This document shows, one piece after another, positions 30,285-41,687 of a stretch of DNA of 64,000 nucleotides. Numbering within the stretch: position 1 is the first letter of the stretch; the number at the start of each line of letters is the position of its first letter. The stretch is from an uncultured delta proteobacterium (GTDB lineage Bacteria > Desulfobacterota > Syntrophorhabdia > Syntrophorhabdales > WCHB1-27): positions 224,001-288,000 of the forward strand of contig CAWEPK010000005.1 of NCBI GenBank assembly GCA_963810935.1, written 5' to 3'. The notes below the pieces were generated by a model, which was not told the DNA's origin, did not search any database, and was given only the letters and a program-made list of their open reading frames with translations. Made by a program: the position numbers and the translations under genes.

Positions 30285-31021
30285 AGTGCCGCCTTGTCTG
30301 CCGGAGCAACCGGCGGCGTTTCACATAAACGCTCGTATGTGGCGATGTCGCCCATGTCGTGCCACTCGCCCTCATCTATGACCACGCCCCTGACTGCGCC
30401 GCGTGAGGCCGCTATCCGTCCGAGCAGGATGGGGACGATCGACTGGGGGCGGCCAGTCTCGATGAAGCGCAGGATCGACGTCTCTACTGCGTAGATCCCG
30501 GTGAAGAGGCAGTTCCTTGCCGATGGTGCGCCGAGGGCCCCCCGCATATCGCATACCACGCCCTCATCGCTGATGCTTACGTTCAGGGGGCAGCCGCTGC
30601 TTCGTAAGGCCAGCGTCGCCTCCGGCCGCAGCCGTTCGTGCCAGGCGCAAAGAGGTCCCAGGGAAAAACCGGCTATCACGTCCCCGTTGTAGCAGAGGAT
30701 GGCATCATCCTCGTCGAGGAGGTCTTCGATGTTCTTCAAACCCCCGGCCGTGTCGAGGAGGACGGGCTCGTTACGGAAAGAGACAGGCACGCCGCGCCAC
30801 CGGCCGTCCGGGAATTTTTCTTCGTACATCTCGTGACGGAGGTACGTGTTTACGATGAAGCGGTCGACGCCCGCAGTGATGAGGTGGTCCATTGCGTACG
30901 TGATGACGGGGCGGCCGCCCAGGGGCAGGAGCGGCTTCGGGCAGCGGTCCGTGAGGGGACGCAGGCGGGTCCCCAACCCGGCGCCCAGGATAAAGGCTGT
31001 CTTCAGCCGGCGTCTTCTCAA
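30281..31021 (-). CDS. MurU-like nucleotidyltransferase
   Basis: AFILGAGLGTRLRPLTDRCPKPL, LDTAGGLKN, YNGD, WHDMG; TTG start overlaps the upstream stop. Confidence 0.85.
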   Translation of the reverse strand: MRRRRLKTAFILGAGLGTRLRPLTDRCPKPLLPLGGRPVITYAMDHLITAGVDRFIVNTYLRHEMYEEKFPDGRWRGVPVSFRNEPVLLDTAGGLKNIEDLLDEDDAILCYNGDVIAGFSLGPLCAWHERLRPEATLALRSSGCPLNVSISDEGVVCDMRGALGAPSARNCLFTGIYAVETSILRFIETGRPQSIVPILLGRIAASRGAVRGVVIDEGEWHDMGDIATYERLCETPPVAPADKAAL

Positions 31022-32354
31022 TATAGCCTCGATAAGGTCGCGCCGCGAAAATAATGGGCCATAATCTGCTCCGCCGAAAACCCCCTGCTCGCCATCACTG
31101 CCGCTCCGATCTGGCAAAGGCCGACCCCGTGGCCCCACCCTGCGCCCTCGAAGACGAACCGCTCCGGCACGCGCCCTGCCGGGAGGGCCCTTACCATAAA
31201 CGCACTGCTGTAAAGGTGGCTGGGCGAGAGCCACCGCCTTATCTCCAGCTCCTTACCCACGACAACGGCCATTTTCGAGCCGGAGATCATAAGCTTGCGT
31301 ATCCGGCCCGAGGGGCCGCGCTCCAAAGGCTCGATTCTCCGAAGCGCGCCGAAATCGAGACCCGATTTTTCGCGGATGATCTGTTCGAGCTCGCCACGGG
31401 TATATTCCACGGTCCACCTAAAAAAAGACGTCGTCTCCCTGTCGAAATCGGGGAGGATGCTTGCAAGCAGCGCCTCGTCCTTCGTGTTGCAATAGACATC
31501 CGGCCGGGCGTCGATCCAGCGTTCGGCCTGCTCCTCTGTCGTGACCGGGGCATAGGCCCCCGGTCCGTCGAAGATGCTGACGAGGTAGGGTACGTGGACG
31601 TCCGCCCAGGCGGTGCGGAATTCCTCCGTCAACCCGCCGCACGCCTTCGAATAACGGGCGTCGCAAATCTCGCTTTCGTTGGTGAGGGCTATGCCCCTCG
31701 TCTCCCTTACCGCGTCGCGGACGTTATCGGACGTGATTTTCGTGAGGCCGTGGTAGCGTTGGCAGTGGTCGTCTGCGCAGACGTCGAAAAGCTCATGGTC
31801 CTCCCCGTCGTACCACCGCACGATCTCCGCGTCGCGTTGTGCAGGCGGGGGGCTCGCGGCGGACCTTGTGCGGCCCACCCTTTTTCACCAGTATGGCGAG
31901 GGCCCAGCTCCTCGACAGGATCGCGTGGCACTTCAGGAACTCGATCGGGGCCTGCGCGCTCATCTCGGAGGCGACTACGCTTTCCAGGTAATCCTCTACA
32001 GGCAGGCTCGTTGACGGCAGACACCCCGCCGTCCTTGCCGGCAAGAAGAACGAGGTTCCCCCGGTAACTGTGGTCCTCTTTTCTTTCCCAGTGGAAGCTC
32101 TTACCTATCGTAACACGGAAGAGGTCGAACATCGTGTTTGCGCCGCCTTCGATCCGCAGGGCGGCGGCGCGGGCCGCCTCGTGCCCCTCGCCGTCGCGCA
32201 GTACGATGCGCCCGGCGTGCGATGCGGCCGAAAACCCTCCCGACACCGGCCCTACGCCGTCTATCGAGAAGACGCCGTTAAGACGGCCTTCGAGGTTTTG
32301 CTCCTCGACTATGCTTACGGAGATGAGAGGTTCGCTTACAATCCTCACAGCCAT
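31018..32354 (-). CDS. SpoIID/LytB-domain lytic transglycosylase (frameshifts near 32000 and 31850)
   Basis: [58 protein letters not shown], across three ORFs. Confidence 0.9.
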
Positions 32355-32590
32355 CAGAGCCAAAAAATTATTACTTTTTCGGAAGACTGTCAATCGCGGC
32401 GGAATGTGCAGCCTTTTTTTACACCCCGCCCTCTTTCACGCGATGATGTCATTTACTAAGGCCTGAGGCGACGTTATCGGCCTGCCCTCCGGGGGCACGC
32501 ACCGAAAAGGTGTCCCTTCTCTTTACAGAGGCTCCACGCCCTTTCGTCGAAGATGCGCATGTTTTCAGGGTATTCGAGGGCCTGCGCCGC

Positions 32591-32944: not shown

Positions 32945-33757
32945 ATGAATACGAAGAAGAAATTCGGCCTTAAGGGTTATTCGCTGCCTCTCACTCCGGA
33001 AGGGCGCTCATCCGTCATTGACGCGCCCCCGTGGTATTACGGGGGTGAGATCCTCCATATAGGGTTCAAGGCCGCAAAAGAGAAGGTCGCCCGGCTGCTG
33101 CCGCCGCCCCTCGAGATGGGGCCGGACCCCGGGGCCGGGGCAGTCTGGTTCCCCGACTGGGTATCCGTAAGCGAGGGCAGGCCCGACCTCGCGTTCGTCA
33201 ACCCGGAAAGGTCGAACTACCGCGAGTGCCTCGTGATGCTCGCATGCAGTTTTAACGGCAAGCCCGGCTACTTCGTCCCGTATATCTGGGTGGACAACGA
33301 CTTCACCCTTATCAGAGGCTTCATCCAGGGGTTCCCGAAAAAGCTTGGGAGGATATACGTCACCAGGCTCCACGAGCTGAACCCGAAGATCGGTGGAAAA
33401 AAAATAGGGGCGAAAATAAAGGGCATCTGCGAAGTAAACGCCCAGAGGATCGTGGAAGGTTCGATGACGTTTACGCGAAAGGCGAAGCCGTCCGAGGTCC
33501 CGCCCGTGAAATTCTATCTCATGCGCCATTTCCCGAGCGTGGAGGACCCGAACGTACCCGCCGTGCACGAGCTTGCGACCGGCGCTGTCCGGGACGTGAA
33601 GATAGCCGATGTATGGACAGGCAGCGGTGAGCTTTCCTTTTTCCCCTCGCCTTTCGAAGAGGTCGCCGGCCTCGGCCGCGTCAAGGTGCAGGAGGCGTTC
33701 TATTTCAGCATGGGCATGACGATAACAGGCGGCGAAGTGCTCCACAAGTACAGGTAA
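32945..33757 (+). CDS. Acetoacetate decarboxylase-like superfamily protein (MppR-like)
   Basis: GYSLPLTPEG..PPWYY, IWVDND, RGFIQGFPKK (Schiff-base Lys motif). Confidence 0.85.
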   Translation: MNTKKKFGLKGYSLPLTPEGRSSVIDAPPWYYGGEILHIGFKAAKEKVARLLPPPLEMGPDPGAGAVWFPDWVSVSEGRPDLAFVNPERSNYRECLVMLACSFNGKPGYFVPYIWVDNDFTLIRGFIQGFPKKLGRIYVTRLHELNPKIGGKKIGAKIKGICEVNAQRIVEGSMTFTRKAKPSEVPPVKFYLMRHFPSVEDPNVPAVHELATGAVRDVKIADVWTGSGELSFFPSPFEEVAGLGRVKVQEAFYFSMGMTITGGEVLHKYR

Positions 33758-33865
33758 CGGTCCACAGCCGCCTTTACGGGGCGCCTCACAGACCGCCCAA
33801 TCGAGCCGCCATTCCGGGCGCACCTCTCTTTACAGACGCGCCTGCCGGTCTAATAATTCTATAGA

Positions 33866-34546
33866 ATGCGCGACGCAGCGGCTGCATCACTCATGGCGAT
33901 AGCCATGCTCTGCTTCCCCCCGGCCTGCATGGGGGCAGGCCGGGACGCGGGCGCGGAAACGATTGTCAGGCAGATGCAGGCCGCCTGGGCAAACGTACAC
34001 GATTACCGGGCGCGGATGCTCATTCGCACATATCGGGACAGCGGGTCGCCCGATACGCAGACGTTCTTTTACACATTCAGGAAGCCCGACCAAATCAGGA
34101 TAGATTTCATACGTCCTCACCCGGGCATGGTGATGATATATCCTGACAAGGAGGGAAGGGTCTTCATCAGGCCCTCCGGGCTTGCCCGGCTCTTCCGTCT
34201 GCACCTGCCTCCGGACAGCCCGAGGCTCGTAGTCTCCGCCGGGCAGCGCATAGACCAGACGGACCTGGGGCTGCTGATCGCCAACATAGCGCGCAGCGTA
34301 GGGAGCGAGCGGCGGGGGCCGGTCTTCACATTCGAGGAGAACGGGCTGGCGGTCATTCAGACGGTCGCTGTGGACCACTTCCGCCCGGACGTAGTCACCG
34401 CTTACAGGTTCCTGATAGATAAGCACATGTGGCTCCCCGTCAGGGTGGAGGAATCGACGCCGGGAGGGCAAACCGAGCGGACGATAAGCTTTTTCGACCT
34501 CGAAGTGAACGTATCAATTCCGGTCGCTTTCTTCAAGGCCGGGTGA
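33866..34546 (+). CDS. LolA-like periplasmic lipid/lipoprotein carrier-fold protein
   Basis: Signal peptide; DYRA, FRKPDQIRID, LIDKHMWLPVRVE, FFDLEVN..F. Confidence 0.7.
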   Translation: MRDAAAASLMAIAMLCFPPACMGAGRDAGAETIVRQMQAAWANVHDYRARMLIRTYRDSGSPDTQTFFYTFRKPDQIRIDFIRPHPGMVMIYPDKEGRVFIRPSGLARLFRLHLPPDSPRLVVSAGQRIDQTDLGLLIANIARSVGSERRGPVFTFEENGLAVIQTVAVDHFRPDVVTAYRFLIDKHMWLPVRVEESTPGGQTERTISFFDLEVNVSIPVAFFKAG

Positions 34547-34564
34547 GGTAAGGACGGCCTGACC

Positions 34565-35308
34565 ATGGGAGAGACGGACGGCAGGGAGACCGGGAGGCAG
34601 GCAGAGTGGTTTGTGCCCTGGTTCGGGCCGGCAGCCTTCCGGTCGTTCGTAGGTCTTCTGTTCCTGCCGTACACGGGCATGGTCCTCTCCTTCGCCGTCC
34701 TGGGCTCCGTAGTCGCGCCTTCGATAGACCTCGGAAGGCTTTGCGCAATAGTTATTATTTATGCCCTGGGTCTCGGCGTAGGCGCCCACAGCCTCGACGC
34801 GCTTGGAAGGGGAGGGAAGAAACCGTGGGGCGTTATCCTCACGAAGCGGCAGCTTATAGTAGTCGCGGCCGCTTCCTTGACGTCCGCCTATGCCGTTGCC
34901 GCCTACTACATGGTGACCGCCGTCTCCCGCCTCTGGACCGTCGCGGCAGCAGAGGGCTTCTTCGTTTTCGCCTACAACCTGGAGTGGTTCAAGGGCAGGT
35001 TCCACACGGACGGATGGTTTGCCTTCTCATGGGGGTTTCTGCCCGTTATAGCAGGCAACATCATGCAGACCAACACGGTCTCTCCGGCCGCCCTTGCACT
35101 CGGGCTTTCCATGGCGCTTTTCAGCCTGATAGAGATAAAGGCCTCCCGCCCGTACAAGGAGCTGAAGAAGCGCGCCGGCCCGTATGCGGCGGATGACCTT
35201 TCGGAAATTGCCGCGTACGAATACATTTTGAAATGCGTGAGCCTCGGCGTCATGCTCCTTGCGTCGGCGTTTCTGATCCTGAGGTTTTCCGGCGGGCGGC
35301 ACCCGTGA
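34565..35308 (+). CDS. Integral membrane protein, divergent UbiA-prenyltransferase-like
   Basis: About 7-8 TM segments; AHSLDAL..KPW loop at the position of the UbiA NDxxD..RP loop; FAYNLE, FHTDGWFAFSWG. Confidence 0.55.
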   Translation: MGETDGRETGRQAEWFVPWFGPAAFRSFVGLLFLPYTGMVLSFAVLGSVVAPSIDLGRLCAIVIIYALGLGVGAHSLDALGRGGKKPWGVILTKRQLIVVAAASLTSAYAVAAYYMVTAVSRLWTVAAAEGFFVFAYNLEWFKGRFHTDGWFAFSWGFLPVIAGNIMQTNTVSPAALALGLSMALFSLIEIKASRPYKELKKRAGPYAADDLSEIAAYEYILKCVSLGVMLLASAFLILRFSGGRHP

Positions 35309-36276
35309 GCGATTTTCACGCATATATCGCGAGACGAAGGCCCCGAATCGATGAGGCTTACAACCTCAGGCTGTATGCCCTTCTGACCGGCGTACCGGCC
35401 GCGGACCGGACGGGCCTCTTACAGAGCCTCCAGGCAGGAAAGAAGATAAGGGGGTGCCTGGCCTGCCTCGTCTGCGAGGGGCTGGGCGGCCCCGTGGAGC
35501 AGGCAATCCCAAGGGCGGTAGCCGTAGAGATGATACAGGCGGCCACCCTGCTGCACGATGATTTCGTCGATCAGGACACGCTCAGGGGCGGCAGGCCGGC
35601 AGTCTGGACAGTCGAGGGGGCGAGGAGGACGGTCCTTATAGGGGACGTTATCTTCGCTGCCGCCATTAAAATGATGGCCGATGTGGGCGCACGCGACGGG
35701 CGGGAGGCGGCAGACGCCATCGCCAGGGTCTCGCGCGGCGCCTTGAAAGAGCCGCTCGACGCGCAGGCGCTCGCGGAAAGGATAGAATCGGACGGCCCGC
35801 ACGCGGCCCCGTACGATGAGATCGTCCGGCTCAAGACGGCCGAGCTTTTCGGCACTGCCTGCACCCTCGGCGCGATCGCGGCGGGCCTGGACGGCCCGGT
35901 ATCAGAGATATGCCGCAGCTACGGACTGTCGGTCGGCGAGGCATACCAGATAGCCGACGACCTGAAGGAAGTACGGCACTGCCTCTATGCGGGGCTCATC
36001 GATGCCCGCCACGCAACGGGCATTGCCCCTGCCGTCCTGCGCTTTGCGCCGGAGGCGCGTATGCTTCTGGTCGACGCGCTGAAAGGCGGGCGGCGGCAGA
36101 TCGATGCAGGGGACCGCGCACTCCTCGCAGATGCCGCCCGGCTGATGGAAGAGGCAGTAGAAGCGCGATGGGGGGCAGCGGCAGCCCTGATAGGCGGCTT
36201 TCCTTATAGCGGCTATAGCGAGGTTGTACGGAAGGCCCCGGAGGAGATTATCGCGATTTTCAACGAGTCGCTTTAA
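35305..36276 (+). CDS. Polyprenyl diphosphate synthase family protein
   Basis: GKKIRG, LLHDDFVD..RGG (FARM), IGD, LKTAELF, AYQIADDLKE (SARM); GTGA overlap. Confidence 0.9.
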   Translation: MSDFHAYIARRRPRIDEAYNLRLYALLTGVPAADRTGLLQSLQAGKKIRGCLACLVCEGLGGPVEQAIPRAVAVEMIQAATLLHDDFVDQDTLRGGRPAVWTVEGARRTVLIGDVIFAAAIKMMADVGARDGREAADAIARVSRGALKEPLDAQALAERIESDGPHAAPYDEIVRLKTAELFGTACTLGAIAAGLDGPVSEICRSYGLSVGEAYQIADDLKEVRHCLYAGLIDARHATGIAPAVLRFAPEARMLLVDALKGGRRQIDAGDRALLADAARLMEEAVEARWGAAAALIGGFPYSGYSEVVRKAPEEIIAIFNESL

Positions 36277-36330
36277 TTCTACCGTTCCACAAAATGTGTT
36301 CCTGTTTGAGGTTCGTTGATTCCTTTCCTT

Positions 36331-36437
36331 CCGTCATTCCGGCGAAAGCCGGAATCCAATGCTGTCAGGGACCCGCAATCGCTGGACCCTGGTTCCCGGA
36401 TTGAAACATTCCGGGACAAGCTTCATCAGGGTGACGG
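36331..36437. repeat. CGTC-type REP doublet
   Basis: CCGTCATTCCGGCGAAAGCCGGAATCCA ... TGGACCCTG-insert-CAGGGTGACGG, inverted CCGTCA termini. Confidence 0.8.
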
Positions 36438-37141
36438 CCGAGGGGGGCCGGGCTTTTGGCGCGGACGATGGCTGCTGCACCGAAGTGGAGGCTTTCTGAG
36501 CCGATTTCTTCGAAGCCGCAGCCAGCTAGAAGTTCTTTAAGGCGGGCTACCCAATCCGTCTGCCGAAGGAAGCCCGGAAGGTCGTCAAACGCGGGCCTCC
36601 AGGAAGGATAGAACCTGACTGCGATACTCTGTAAGAGCGCAAAATGGAGCCGCCACGCAGCAGCGCAGGTCTTGTTGCCGGGATAGGTGAAGTCGTGCAT
36701 AATGAGCAAGCCGCCCGGCCGGAGAATCTTCTTCACGTTTCGGACGAGGGCGGGAAGGTTTGCGTATTTTGCAAGGTACGATGAAGTGACGCAGTCGGCG
36801 GGCCCTTCCGGCAGCATGTCCTCGGCGCGTCCCTGCATCAACTCCACGTTGCCCAGGCCAGAGGCGGCTGTCTTCGCCTTTGCTATTTTCAGGTACCCTT
36901 CGGTCACGTCTATGCCCGTTACGCGGGCCTGCGGGAAATGCCGTGCGAGCATCAGAGTAAGGATGCCTGTGCCGCATGCCTGGTCGACTATCCTGGCCGG
37001 CCCTGCGGGTACCATCCCCACTATCCTCTTTTTCCACCTGTTGTCGAAGCCCAGCGTCGTCGCGCGGACGACGCTGTCGTAACTCGACCCCGTGCCCGAA
37101 AAAAAACGGCCCACGAGGTCCATACGATCGCTGTTCTCCAT
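36365..37141 (-). CDS. UbiE/MenG-like class I SAM methyltransferase
   Basis: FFSGTGSSYD..TLGFDNRWKK, VDQACGTG, GIDVT, LRPGG..HDF. Confidence 0.85.
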   Translation of the reverse strand: MENSDRMDLVGRFFSGTGSSYDSVVRATTLGFDNRWKKRIVGMVPAGPARIVDQACGTGILTLMLARHFPQARVTGIDVTEGYLKIAKAKTAASGLGNVELMQGRAEDMLPEGPADCVTSSYLAKYANLPALVRNVKKILRPGGLLIMHDFTYPGNKTCAAAWRLHFALLQSIAVRFYPSWRPAFDDLPGFLRQTDWVARLKELLAGCGFEEIGSESLHFGAAAIVRAKSPAPLGRHPDEACPGMFQSGNQGPAIAGP

Positions 37142-37182
37142 TGTGCCCGGCCCCAGCAGCCGCCTGCAGCGGCGGTACTAAT

Positions 37183-38172
37183 TTATAAGAGATTGCGCAG
37201 CAGTGCCGAAGCCTGCCTGATGCCCACCTTGATCCCCATCCGCGCCGAATTCTTTTTCAGCGTCCTGGCGCTTCGGAGATCGAGCCGCTCGCCCCGTCTC
37301 ATCCGGTCGATTACGCTCCGCTCGTCCTTCATCCAGCCGAACTCCCGCATTATGGCGCTCGTGTAACCCTCCGGGTCGTCCCAGGACCGCATGAGCAGGC
37401 TGACGCTCTTCATGCCGGGAACGATCCCATCGCCCGCGAGCGGCGCTACGCATCCGATTGCCTCGCCGACCCCCCAGACGTCGCATCCGTTATGTCTGGT
37501 GACGAAAGGCAGCGACGCATGCGGCGCCGTCAGGCGGATGTTCCCTTTGCAGCCGCAGAGCACTTTGCCCGGCGAGCCGTTGCCGCTCACCCAGCCGAGC
37601 TCGCGCAGGCGCATCGCCGGGTCCGCCAGCAGGGAGCCGCATCCTATGTGATATTCCCCTTTCGACAACGGGAAGCACCAGGCATAGCCGATGCCGCCGA
37701 GCGTTATGCGGTTTTCGAGCGCCTCATCGGAGCGTACCCGGAATTGAACGCACGGCAGCGTGACATCGTCATCGATGGCAGGCAGAAGCGCTCTGGATAC
37801 GCCGGACGCATCGATCACCCTCTCATATGACCCGGCGTCGAACCCAGAACGCCGTATCCCGGCCCCCGAGAAAAGGTCCCCCAGGAGCTTTTGCTTGTCG
37901 AAAGTCATGAGATCGACCCCTATCCTGAAGCCGTCAATCAGTATGTGGTCCATTTTGCTCAAGGCATAATCCGAAGCGTCGAGGCCCGCGTCGTGCGCAA
38001 GCTCGGCGAACTCCCGCGACGTCGCCCACGCGCACGGGCTGACCCCGCATGACGTACCGGGGTCCTTGCCGAAGACGTCGGCCCGGACGCCGCTTTGCAG
38101 AAGCAGCCGGAACAGATAGGCGGCCGTCAGGCCCGCCCCCAGAATAGCCACTTTCATAGCCCGGACTTCCAT
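37183..38172 (-). CDS. FAD-dependent oxidoreductase, geranylgeranyl-reductase-like
   Basis: VAILGAG, PCAW, IDASG, GYAWCFP..HIGCG, VGEAIGCVAPLAGDGI. Confidence 0.78.
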   Translation of the reverse strand: MEVRAMKVAILGAGLTAAYLFRLLLQSGVRADVFGKDPGTSCGVSPCAWATSREFAELAHDAGLDASDYALSKMDHILIDGFRIGVDLMTFDKQKLLGDLFSGAGIRRSGFDAGSYERVIDASGVSRALLPAIDDDVTLPCVQFRVRSDEALENRITLGGIGYAWCFPLSKGEYHIGCGSLLADPAMRLRELGWVSGNGSPGKVLCGCKGNIRLTAPHASLPFVTRHNGCDVWGVGEAIGCVAPLAGDGIVPGMKSVSLLMRSWDDPEGYTSAIMREFGWMKDERSVIDRMRRGERLDLRSARTLKKNSARMGIKVGIRQASALLRNLL

Positions 38173-38300
38173 ATATCGTTCAACTCCTTATATATTCATT
38201 ATAGGTCACGTCTGCCCGAAACGGCAAAAAAAGGCCTCACATAGCCTTCGCCTCCCATCCAGTTACGCAAAGGCATCGCAGGGTGTATAATAAGAAAAAG

Positions 38301-40081: not shown

Positions 40082-41687
40082 CTAGGGTTTACGCAGCCTG
40101 TCGACACGGTCCAGCACCATGACCCGGACGTCCTGGCCAGGCTTCATCTCCAGACACGTCTCGTACTGCTCCATCGCAAGGCCCTTATCGCCCTCCGCCT
40201 CGTGACACCTGCCCAGGATGTAATGCCCCCTGGCATAATACGGGTTCAGCTCGATGGCCCTGACGGACGTGTTCCTGGCCTCTTCGAATCGCGAGCCGTC
40301 TAGGTAGACTTCCGCCAGAGCGCACAGGAAATCGGGATAGGAAACACCGGAGGCCGCGAGGAAGACCCCGTGCTCGGCAGCCTGCTCGTGCTTTCCCAGC
40401 ATCTTCTGGGCATAGAAAAGGTTGAGCCTCGCTTTCGAGTACCGGGCGTTGAGCCTCACGGCTTCCGCAAAGCAGGCCTCCGCCTCTGCGGGCTGGTTCA
40501 CCTTCATGTAAAGCGTGCCCAGGCTGTTGTGGACGTCGGGATAGGCCGGGTGCTCCGCTATGTGGTTCCTGACGAGAGGGATCAGCGTCCCGGCCAGTGA
40601 CGCATCCTCGTCCGCGATGCTGAGGATGACCGAAACCATCTCGGATAAGTCGGGGGTGATCCTTATCGACTTATTGAACTCCGGTATGTTCTTCGTGATC
40701 TCGCTGTCTTTGAGCATCTTCCTTAACACGCCGGCGAAGTTCTCGCCCCGCGAGGAAGCCAGGACGCCCCGTATGGCCTGCAGCATGGTGGCCACGTCCC
40801 CGTCGCCCGGATCGACCGCGTGCAGCTCTTCAAGCTCTTTCAGGCCCTGCTCGAACTGGTCGAGGTAACAGTAAACCGCAGCCAGCTTGATCTTGGCCTC
40901 CTTGTACGAAGGGTTGATCGCCAGCGCGCGCATGAAGCTGCCCCTTGCCTTTTCCCATTCCTTTCGGGAGGTCTGCAAAAGCCCCAGATAATAATGCAGG
41001 TCCGCGTAATCGGGGAACGACGAGATAAGGGCCGTCAGCGCAACGAGCGCTTCGTCGAGCTTGCCAAGGTATATATGGGCCACAACGATCTTGATGCGCG
41101 CCTGTAAGTAATTGTGGTTTATCTCCAGCGCCGACTCGAACGACGCAAGGGCGCGCGCCACCTGTCCCTGTCCGAGAAGCGCGAGACCGAGATTGTAATG
41201 GATATCGGCGTATTGCGGGTTCTTGAAAAGTATCTCTTTGTAGAGCGACGCTGCCCTGTCCCACATCTTGTTGTTGTGGAGGACGACTCCGAACCTCAGC
41301 GCAACGGGAAGGTTGTGGGGATCGACCGAGAGGACCGTGTTGAAGCTGTCTATGGCGCCCTTGAAGTCGCCCAGGTTGTTCTGGCAGACGCCGATGAAGT
41401 AGTTCGAGCTCGTTATAATCGGGGTTGAAGTGGAGGGCCATCTTGAACTCCTCCAGCGCTTCACGGTAGCTCCCGGTAGCGAACAGGACGATTCCCAGGT
41501 TCCTGTGCGACTGGCTCGCATATACGAGAGAAAGGTTGTAGTGCAGGCTTTTCAGCGATCTCTTTTGCGCAAGCAGCTCCTCAAACTTAGCAATCGCCTC
41601 CCTATAATTGTGTTCGTTGAAGAATCGCATGGCCTCATTGTAAAGCTCGTTGCTTCCCAGCGTCCAGATCCTTTTAAAGATCCTCAT
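40082..41687 (-). CDS. Tetratricopeptide repeat protein (frameshift near 41410)
   Basis: Repeated YADIHYNLG, YADLHYYLG, YPDVHNSLG units; ATG abuts the sugar transferase stop. Confidence 0.88.

Follow-up and report, generated by a model that had tools for sequence, protein, structure and literature searches.

A two-gene core of a predicted UbiA-fold membrane protein and a UbiE-like methyltransferase in an accessory, apparently undescribed gene cassette

Organisation of the locus

The window analysed here is a 64,000-nucleotide stretch of DNA from an uncultured deltaproteobacterium (contig CAWEPK010000005.1, positions 224,001 to 288,000), located in contig C5 of the host assembly, hereafter G000, which is 93% complete. 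It carries a cassette of five genes (Table 1) encoding a LolA-like protein, a UbiA-like membrane protein, a polyprenyl diphosphate synthase, a UbiE-like S-adenosylmethionine (SAM) methyltransferase and a geranylgeranyl reductase (GGR)-like flavoprotein. The first three form a plus-strand arm that converges on a minus-strand arm of the last two. Intergenic distances along the cassette are 18 nt, −4 nt, 88 nt (convergent) and 41 nt; at the GTGA overlap (35305–35308) the GTG start of the synthase gene lies on the stop of the UbiA-like gene, and the two genes are translationally coupled. A first-pass annotation of the window had reported the five open reading frames (ORFs), their tight spacing, this overlap and an AHSLD motif in the membrane protein, and all were recovered at those positions.

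Table 1. Features of the cassette and its immediate surroundings (window coordinates).
Feature	Position	Strand	Remarks
LolA-fold, probably periplasmic lipid-binding protein	33866..34546	+	226 aa, DUF1571-like; optional member
UbiA-fold membrane protein with rebuilt active site (predicted)	34565..35308	+	247 aa; core member
Dedicated trans-polyprenyl diphosphate synthase	35305..36276	+	323 aa, GTG start; optional member
UbiE/MenG/Coq5-like SAM methyltransferase, separate subfamily (YLx[KR]Y signature)	36365..37141	-	core member
Short GGR-family (GGR-like) flavoprotein	37183..38172	-	329 aa; optional member
Sigma70-like promoter consensus, left arm	33829..33857	+	10/12 matches; consensus only
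Sigma70-like promoter consensus, right arm	38198..38227	-	10/12 matches; consensus only
Dispersed palindromic repeat at convergence point	36323..36440	.	outside cassette; blastn

Fold and relatives of the membrane protein

The first-pass annotation had taken the membrane protein for a divergent UbiA. The protein itself matched no Pfam or NCBIfam model, and PF01040 (UbiA) was matched by 73 of its 119 close homologs (E ≤ 0.01). When a profile of 53 distant members was compared by hhalign, the MenA-like group was recovered with 92% probability, against less than 1% each for the MqnP-like group, the DPPR-synthase-like group and one other. The AlphaFold2 (AF2) model had a predicted local distance difference test (pLDDT) score of 89.2, and its best four structures in VIA-align all belonged to the UbiA family, namely UBIAD1 (Z 14.3, root-mean-square deviation (rmsd) 5.1, 216 residues), ApUbiA (Z 12.7, rmsd 3.8, 195 residues), AfUbiA (Z 12.5) and digeranylgeranylglyceryl phosphate (DGGGP) synthase (6m31, Z 12.3). 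Speaking against the assignment, Z values of 12–14 are about chance level for helical bundles, soluble prenyl synthases follow just behind at Z 11, and Foldseek returned nothing for the model at E ≤ 0.001. Taken with the homolog matches and the profile comparison, the model gives the membrane protein a UbiA fold, as the first-pass annotation had proposed, with MenA/UBIAD1 as the nearest group.

The protein is shorter than solved UbiA members (247 vs. 275–283 residues), and a PDB sequence search with its profile gave no useful match. Its closest named homolog comes from a Syntrophorhabdales metagenome-assembled genome (MAG; 73%), which makes it probable that the host belongs there too. Searches begun from two ends of the family scored at least 2,596 and 6,591 related proteins, each out of 8,000 candidates, and the named archaeal members come from Nitrososphaerales, Hadarchaeaceae and Methylarchaceae MAGs. 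Complex prediction for the UbiA-like protein and the methyltransferase yielded a score of 0.00, which gives no verdict. One family member (P0152) is joined to a START/polyketide-cyclase lipid-binding domain, by fusion or read-through.

Co-occurrence and the two-gene core

A scan of GTDB genomes yielded 228 relatives, and the counts below refer to the best 80 loci (clade 1). Carriers belong to Desulfobacterota, other deltaproteobacteria, Nitrospirota, Nitrospinota and Pseudomonadota, with one Acidobacteriota and one Spirochaetota; named hosts are Methylocaldum sp. GT1BB and Desulfuromonas sp. CSMB_57. The same convergent layout recurs in Desulfobacterota, Nitrospirota and Pseudomonadota genomes. 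The methyltransferase accompanied the UbiA-like gene in 67 of the 80 loci, 66 times convergently and within 3 kb, and seven of the 13 loci without it end at a contig edge. The synthase was found in 51 loci, in 50 of them directly downstream of the UbiA-like gene. Among informative loci, the LolA-like gene was present in 31 of 69 and the GGR-like reductase in 28 of 61, and the complete set of five in 18 of the 57 fully informative ones. No further neighbour recurred beyond a few of the 80 loci. Head-group-type neighbours occurred singly (UbiD in L058, chorismate mutase type II in L011). Other lipid genes, within the cassette or next to it, were likewise seen in one case each: a CDP-alcohol phosphotransferase (L055:9634-10266), a squalene-hopene-cyclase-like gene (L017:176-1924) and an ICMT-family gene (L032:5596-6288).

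A second clade was represented by 80 of 564 metagenome loci, probably mostly from Actinomycetota. In 68 of the 69 informative loci here the methyltransferase gene is the same-strand neighbour directly upstream of the UbiA-like gene, the other 11 loci being cut short, and no match to the synthase, the reductase or the LolA-like protein was found in the 80 loci. The contrast in the LolA-like gene (31/80 in clade 1 vs. 0/80 in clade 2) would fit an outer-membrane destination of the product, provided that most of clade 2 is monoderm. Four of 15 long homologs read were clean in-frame fusions of the UbiA-like protein and the methyltransferase. One fusion cluster comprises five proteins 502 residues long, one of them named Ca. 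Limnocylindria. Some Chloroflexota carry the fused form. Eight of 12 long homologs with methyltransferase marks read as adjacent genes joined by a frameshift artefact and are left out of the fusion count.

The core of the cassette is therefore the pair of UbiA-like protein and UbiE-like methyltransferase; synthase, reductase and LolA-like protein are optional. The earlier view of the five genes as one obligatory pathway is not supported.

Two hundred evenly sampled Desulfobacterota genomes were examined together with the host, at thresholds of our own choosing. All five subfamilies occurred in the same three genomes, always adjacent; the host also had the UbiA-like protein, the synthase, the methyltransferase and a close LolA-like protein. 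The other 197 genomes had none of the five, four distant LolA-like matches apart, and the cassette GGR-like subfamily was found exclusively with the cassette. The grouping of the five subfamilies is not due to chance, given that other phyla show the layout too and that the five occur together in the same three of 200 genomes; the co-occurrence expected by the first-pass annotation was found. The cassette was present in 11 of 40 relatives of the host, five of 64 Methylococcaceae and two of 121 Nitrospirota. Since this distribution is patchy and the methyltransferase tree mixes phyla, the pattern is that of a transferred accessory gene set. Mantel correlations of gene distances (rho 0.54–0.64) do not tell co-transfer apart from a shared ancestry of the hosts. 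No cassette match was found in the plasmids or viral contigs searched.

Partner proteins

The remaining family assignments of the first-pass annotation (LolA fold, trans-prenyl synthase, UbiE-like and GGR-like) all hold. The methyltransferase matched PF01209 above cut-off (E 1.7e-19), and its PDB match to Coq5 (4obw) is near full-length (residues 4–226); it has a class I SAM fold with a UbiE-type N-terminus and full-length similarity. It scored under every NCBIfam UbiE/MenG/MpqE cut-off, with 87 vs. 216 and 83 vs. 158 bits for the UbiE/MenG equivalogs. A YLx[KR]Y signature was present in 63/63 clade-1, 27/27 clade-2 and 4/4 fused proteins and in none of six canonical UbiE proteins, whereas the YDxxN and F[GC][LIM]RN signatures were found in 0/53 cassette methyltransferases and in 6/6 canonical ones. 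Canonical UbiE genes formed a separate group in a quick tree, in which phyla were intermixed among the cassette methyltransferases; long branches interfered, and the tree does not settle whether the clade-1 and clade-2 enzymes form one clade.

The synthase matched PF00348 (E 2e-34, residues 43–222) and has a divergent C-terminus. In trans-prenyl synthases, small residues before the first Asp motif lead to products longer than C20. Such residues precede the motif in the cassette synthase, which suggests a product longer than C20. Trans-isoprenyl diphosphate synthases carry a first and a second motif rich in aspartate (FARM, SARM; DDxxD), as described in the available part of PMC9385802. The FARM DDxxD is intact in 45/45 cassette synthases, and the SARM reads DDxxE in most and DDxxD in a minority, with DDLKE in the window copy. 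In three carriers among five relatives, the cassette synthase is a third paralog beside housekeeping synthases.

The GGR-like protein matched TIGR02032 (E 3.9e-7) with 30 bits against a cut-off of 159. Its sole PDB match was 3oz2, a digeranylgeranylglycerophospholipid (DGGGPL) reductase (E 0.0017), which is about 70 residues longer and whose GYIWVFP aligns with GYAWCFP of the cassette protein. GGR motifs are a GxG start for flavin adenine dinucleotide (FAD) binding, YxWxFP and GD/EAxG, and all three are present. Its look-alikes in an ESM comparison were mostly archaeal, some with GGR_cat. The reductase slot at one locus is filled by a different GGR-like flavoprotein (L037:4352-5452), a possible non-orthologous replacement.

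The LolA-like protein itself had no Pfam match, and DUF1571 was matched by six of 27 homologs; a PDB sequence search with its profile gave no useful match. Its AF2 model (pLDDT 86.9) clearly predicts a LolA fold, with a Foldseek E of 3e-8 to LolA and a VIA alignment to 4mxt with Z 15.2 and rmsd 3.3 over 170 aligned residues. As in LolA, LppX and LprG, the model shows an open beta half-barrel with a helical lid. The N-terminus is hydrophobic, lacks a lipobox and, as judged by eye, indicates export. Four distant LolA-like genes lie in other genomic contexts, and in two other genomes (L224:5869-8082, L226:805-2872) canonical GGR-family genes come after distant LolA-like homologs.

Host context

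G000 encodes four other UbiA-family proteins with canonical motifs (MqnP-like beside UbiD, MenA-like, DPPR-synthase-like and one other) and a separate canonical ubiE. The five other hosts tested (5/5) likewise have canonical UbiE besides the cassette enzyme, so the cassette is accessory. MenB, MqnA/D and MqnC were not over cut-off in the 93% complete assembly. The only synthases found were IspA-like and the cassette enzyme; five relatives have a further long-chain-type synthase, which is probably missing from the assembly. The canonical ubiE/menG gene (G000:C12:189282-189963) is split by a frameshift, either a sequencing error or a pseudogene. The MqnP-like prenyltransferase, present although mqnA/D/C were not over cut-off, precedes UbiD and shares one frame with an upstream ATP-binding cassette (ABC) permease-like region (G000:C13:551-4135, 571–575 aa; similar length in G003 and G009).

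Proposed function and alternative explanations

The explanation we favour, with about even confidence, is that an accessory, horizontally spread cassette provides a MenA/MenG-like attach-then-methylate route to a methylated prenylated aromatic membrane lipid built on a small aromatic acceptor. In the sequence of reactions that we infer, the dedicated synthase would make a polyprenyl diphosphate, probably longer than C20, and the UbiA-fold protein would attach this chain to a small hydroxy-aromatic acceptor from the host or the environment. A His/Asp metal site with basic residues would stand in for the two Asp-Mg motifs. The UbiE-like enzyme would then C-methylate the ring, the GGR-like flavoprotein, where present, would saturate the tail, and the LolA-fold protein, where present, would carry the product across the periplasm. 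Where the cassette synthase is absent, the host's own prenyl donor would be used. We prefer this route because the prenyl synthase is dedicated and coupled, the fold is MenA-like and the methyltransferase is of the ring type. It is possible because His/Asp and basic residues could replace the Asp-Mg sites.

Nothing in the cassette is more surprising than the active site of the membrane protein. In AfUbiA, the available text of PMC4106721 describes R22, N68, D72, K146, D198 and D202 as required for Mg-dependent geranyl diphosphate (GPP) binding and Y139 as required for activity; alanine mutants at the R22, Asp-motif and K146 sites abolished or weakened GPP binding, and MenA was inactive once its Asp motifs were lost. 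Positions were mapped to AfUbiA numbering through the MenA-like alignment, with equivalence assigned by motif, and residues were counted in two samples, the 119 close homologs and 53 wider family members. The AHSLD motif occupies residues 74–78, and HxxD is present in 119/119 close and 48/53 wide members. D78 corresponds to D72 (119/119) and is the single clearly retained residue of the six. Y137 corresponds to Y139 in transmembrane helix 4, aligned to the MenA-like FYT (119/119 and 52/53). Retention of the essential Tyr and of one Asp supports a prenyltransferase. Near-invariant new residues are H75 (51/53) and H147 (52/53), and R/K145 is basic in 111/119 close and 32/53 wide members. The segment at the second motif, S-R-P-Y-K-E-L-K-K/R against the MenA-like NNIRDxxxD (register uncertain by one residue), carries S194 and basic K/R198 and K/R201 (52/53 each). 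Together, H75, D78, Y137, H147, S194, K/R198 and K/R201 look like a working active site of another kind.

Several results count against attach-then-methylate. The first Asp-rich motif NxxxDxxxD is lacking (N[DE]xxD in 0/119 and 0/53), as is the second, DxxxD (AfUbiA D198, D202), so the first-pass observation of AHSLD in place of NDxxD and no clear second Asp-rich motif was correct. A basic residue is not conserved at the R22 position (F in 119/119, H in 41/53), and the K146 region is variable without a conserved basic residue. The replacement of most AfUbiA Mg/diphosphate residues speaks against plain prenyl transfer, as the first-pass annotation had envisaged it, and our own doubt on this point arises because the site is rebuilt. 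No head-group or decarboxylase gene recurs beside the cassette, 75 hand-picked flanking or related ORFs included no recurring head-group enzyme, and no chorismate lyase (UbiC or Rv2949c-like) was found in G000. The synthase is missing from clade 2, and six clade-1 loci have no methyltransferase despite 7 kb of downstream DNA.

These losses, with the new near-invariant histidines (H75 51/53, H147 52/53), also feed the main rival, a possible but distinctly less probable reading in which the UbiA-fold protein is no prenyltransferase. A putative His75/Asp78/His147 transition-metal site would instead act on a prenyl diphosphate or host prenylquinone by hydrolysis, cyclisation, hydration or oxidation, in a reaction coupled to methylation by the partner enzyme. 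A two-gene core without head-group genes fits a substrate present in every host, and methylated terpenes such as 2-methylisoborneol and sodorifen, made by pairs of methyltransferase and terpene synthase, provide a precedent. However, the cassette methyltransferase belongs to the UbiE/Coq5 ring-methylating type and is presumably not of the prenyl-diphosphate-methylating type. Nor is a shared quinone substrate obvious, since the hosts' quinones probably differ by taxon (ubiquinone, methyl-plastoquinone or menaquinone).

With MenA/UBIAD1 as the nearest group, and MenB, MqnA/D and MqnC below cut-off in the 93% complete host assembly, a salvage pair is also conceivable. From scavenged naphthoquinols (1,4-dihydroxy-2-naphthoate, DHNA, or menadiol) it would make an alternative menaquinone for respiration, whose tail would be different and saturated. 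We regard this as improbable: the host already has a canonical-motif MenA-like protein, an MqnP-like protein beside UbiD and a canonical ubiE, the 5/5 other hosts have canonical UbiE, and a respiratory quinone needs no periplasmic carrier. The same retention of canonical genes leads us to discard the idea that the cassette replaces the main quinone pathway of the host. Methylene-ubiquinone of methanotrophs was set aside, the family occurring in just 5/64 Methylococcaceae genomes.

An O-methylated isoprenoid glycerol ether of archaeal type is very unlikely to be the product, despite the presence of DGGGP synthase among the four best folds, a reductase resembling archaeal GGR-like families and archaeal homologs of the membrane protein. 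No geranylgeranylglyceryl phosphate (GGGP) synthase or CarS-like gene recurred in the 160 loci of both clades (the search for GGGP synthase covered these loci, not the whole host genome), profile similarity favours MenA and the methyltransferase is UbiE-like. The archaeal-type lipid considered in the first-pass annotation found no specific support, and the overall interpretation of that annotation is partly supported. Methoxy-archaeol was also considered; no cultured ammonia oxidiser is named among the listed homologs, most of which are nameless, so this is weak evidence. Finally, gene fusion, tight linkage and loss of the canonical motifs would suit a non-catalytic membrane scaffold presenting a lipid substrate to the methyltransferase, an explanation that the resemblance of the invariant polar residues (H, D, Y, H, S) at cavity-equivalent positions to a working site makes most implausible.

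Comparison with known systems

The cassette is built from known kinds of enzyme with one unusual active site, and it is a real and conserved set that is apparently undescribed; a full-text literature search, in which most subscription journals were not covered, found no paper on it. The end steps of classical menaquinone synthesis (MenA and MenG/UbiE, with HepST/IspB and MenJ) and human UBIAD1 involve the same four enzyme types. In the cassette, the Asp-rich Mg motifs are replaced, and the methyltransferase carries YLx[KR]Y instead of F[GC][LIM]RN and scores below all family cut-offs. Unlike the classical pathway, the cassette lacks ring-synthesis genes, is accessory and patchy, and has an additional LolA-fold protein.

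The methyl-plastoquinone pathway of Nitrospirota (mpqA, mpqC, mpqE, mpqQ) likewise combines UbiA-family and UbiE-like genes, here to make a quinone discovered recently, and mpqA/E occur in all aerobic Nitrospirota, according to the available part of 10.1101/2024.07.27.605408. The cassette family, in contrast, was found in two of the 121 Nitrospirota sampled, its methyltransferase reached 68 bits against the MpqE cut-off of 335, and it includes no lyase or radical SAM gene. With the archaeal pair of DGGGP synthase and DGGGPL reductase the cassette shares the UbiA fold (6m31, Z 12.3) and the GGR motif (3oz2), but it has no GGGP synthase and no canonical Asp motifs, and its constant partner is a methyltransferase.

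A further parallel comes from integrative elements of Ca. Nitrosocaldus cavascurensis, for which the legend of Fig. 8 in PMC5797428 lists CHLP, GGPS, UbiC, UbiA and UbiE. Going by these labels, for which no function is discussed, the set would comprise the same four enzyme types plus chorismate lyase. If these genes belong to the cassette family, 4-hydroxybenzoate or a related chorismate product becomes the leading acceptor candidate.

Predictions of quinone and lipid inventories start from known pathways, and no genes have yet been assigned to several rare quinones, as stated in the available part of 10.1101/2025.09.17.676790. The cassette is the reverse case, a gene set without a known product, and it is compact, self-contained and widely transferred. 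It can be tested directly, given its minimal two-gene form, a natural fusion and named hosts. New chemistry at the rebuilt site, if it occurs, would widen the range of the UbiA fold. We would go further only tentatively, in a conjecture we consider doubtful: that His-type UbiA-fold enzymes of Bacteria and Archaea, always paired with their own UbiE-like methyltransferase, might perform chemistry new for the fold, based on a transition metal rather than Asp-Mg, and define undescribed membrane isoprenoid lipids that diderms export to the outer membrane.

Neighbouring genes and other features

An acetoacetate-decarboxylase-family gene closest to MppR lies at 32945–33757 (179 bits, below cut-off); this gene and the downstream ORF flank the cassette in just 3–4 close relatives. 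The gene at 31018–32393, which we take from a motif to be SpoIID/LytB-like, is apparently split over two frames, as is a tetratricopeptide repeat (TPR) gene at 40082–41687, possibly through assembly indels. Four sigma70-like sites occur in the region against 1.2 in shuffled sequence, by consensus match only. The repeat at the convergence point has about 20 related copies elsewhere in the host genome by blastn and is absent from the equivalent junction of L001 and L003. It lengthens the C-terminus of the methyltransferase by about 26 residues relative to L003.

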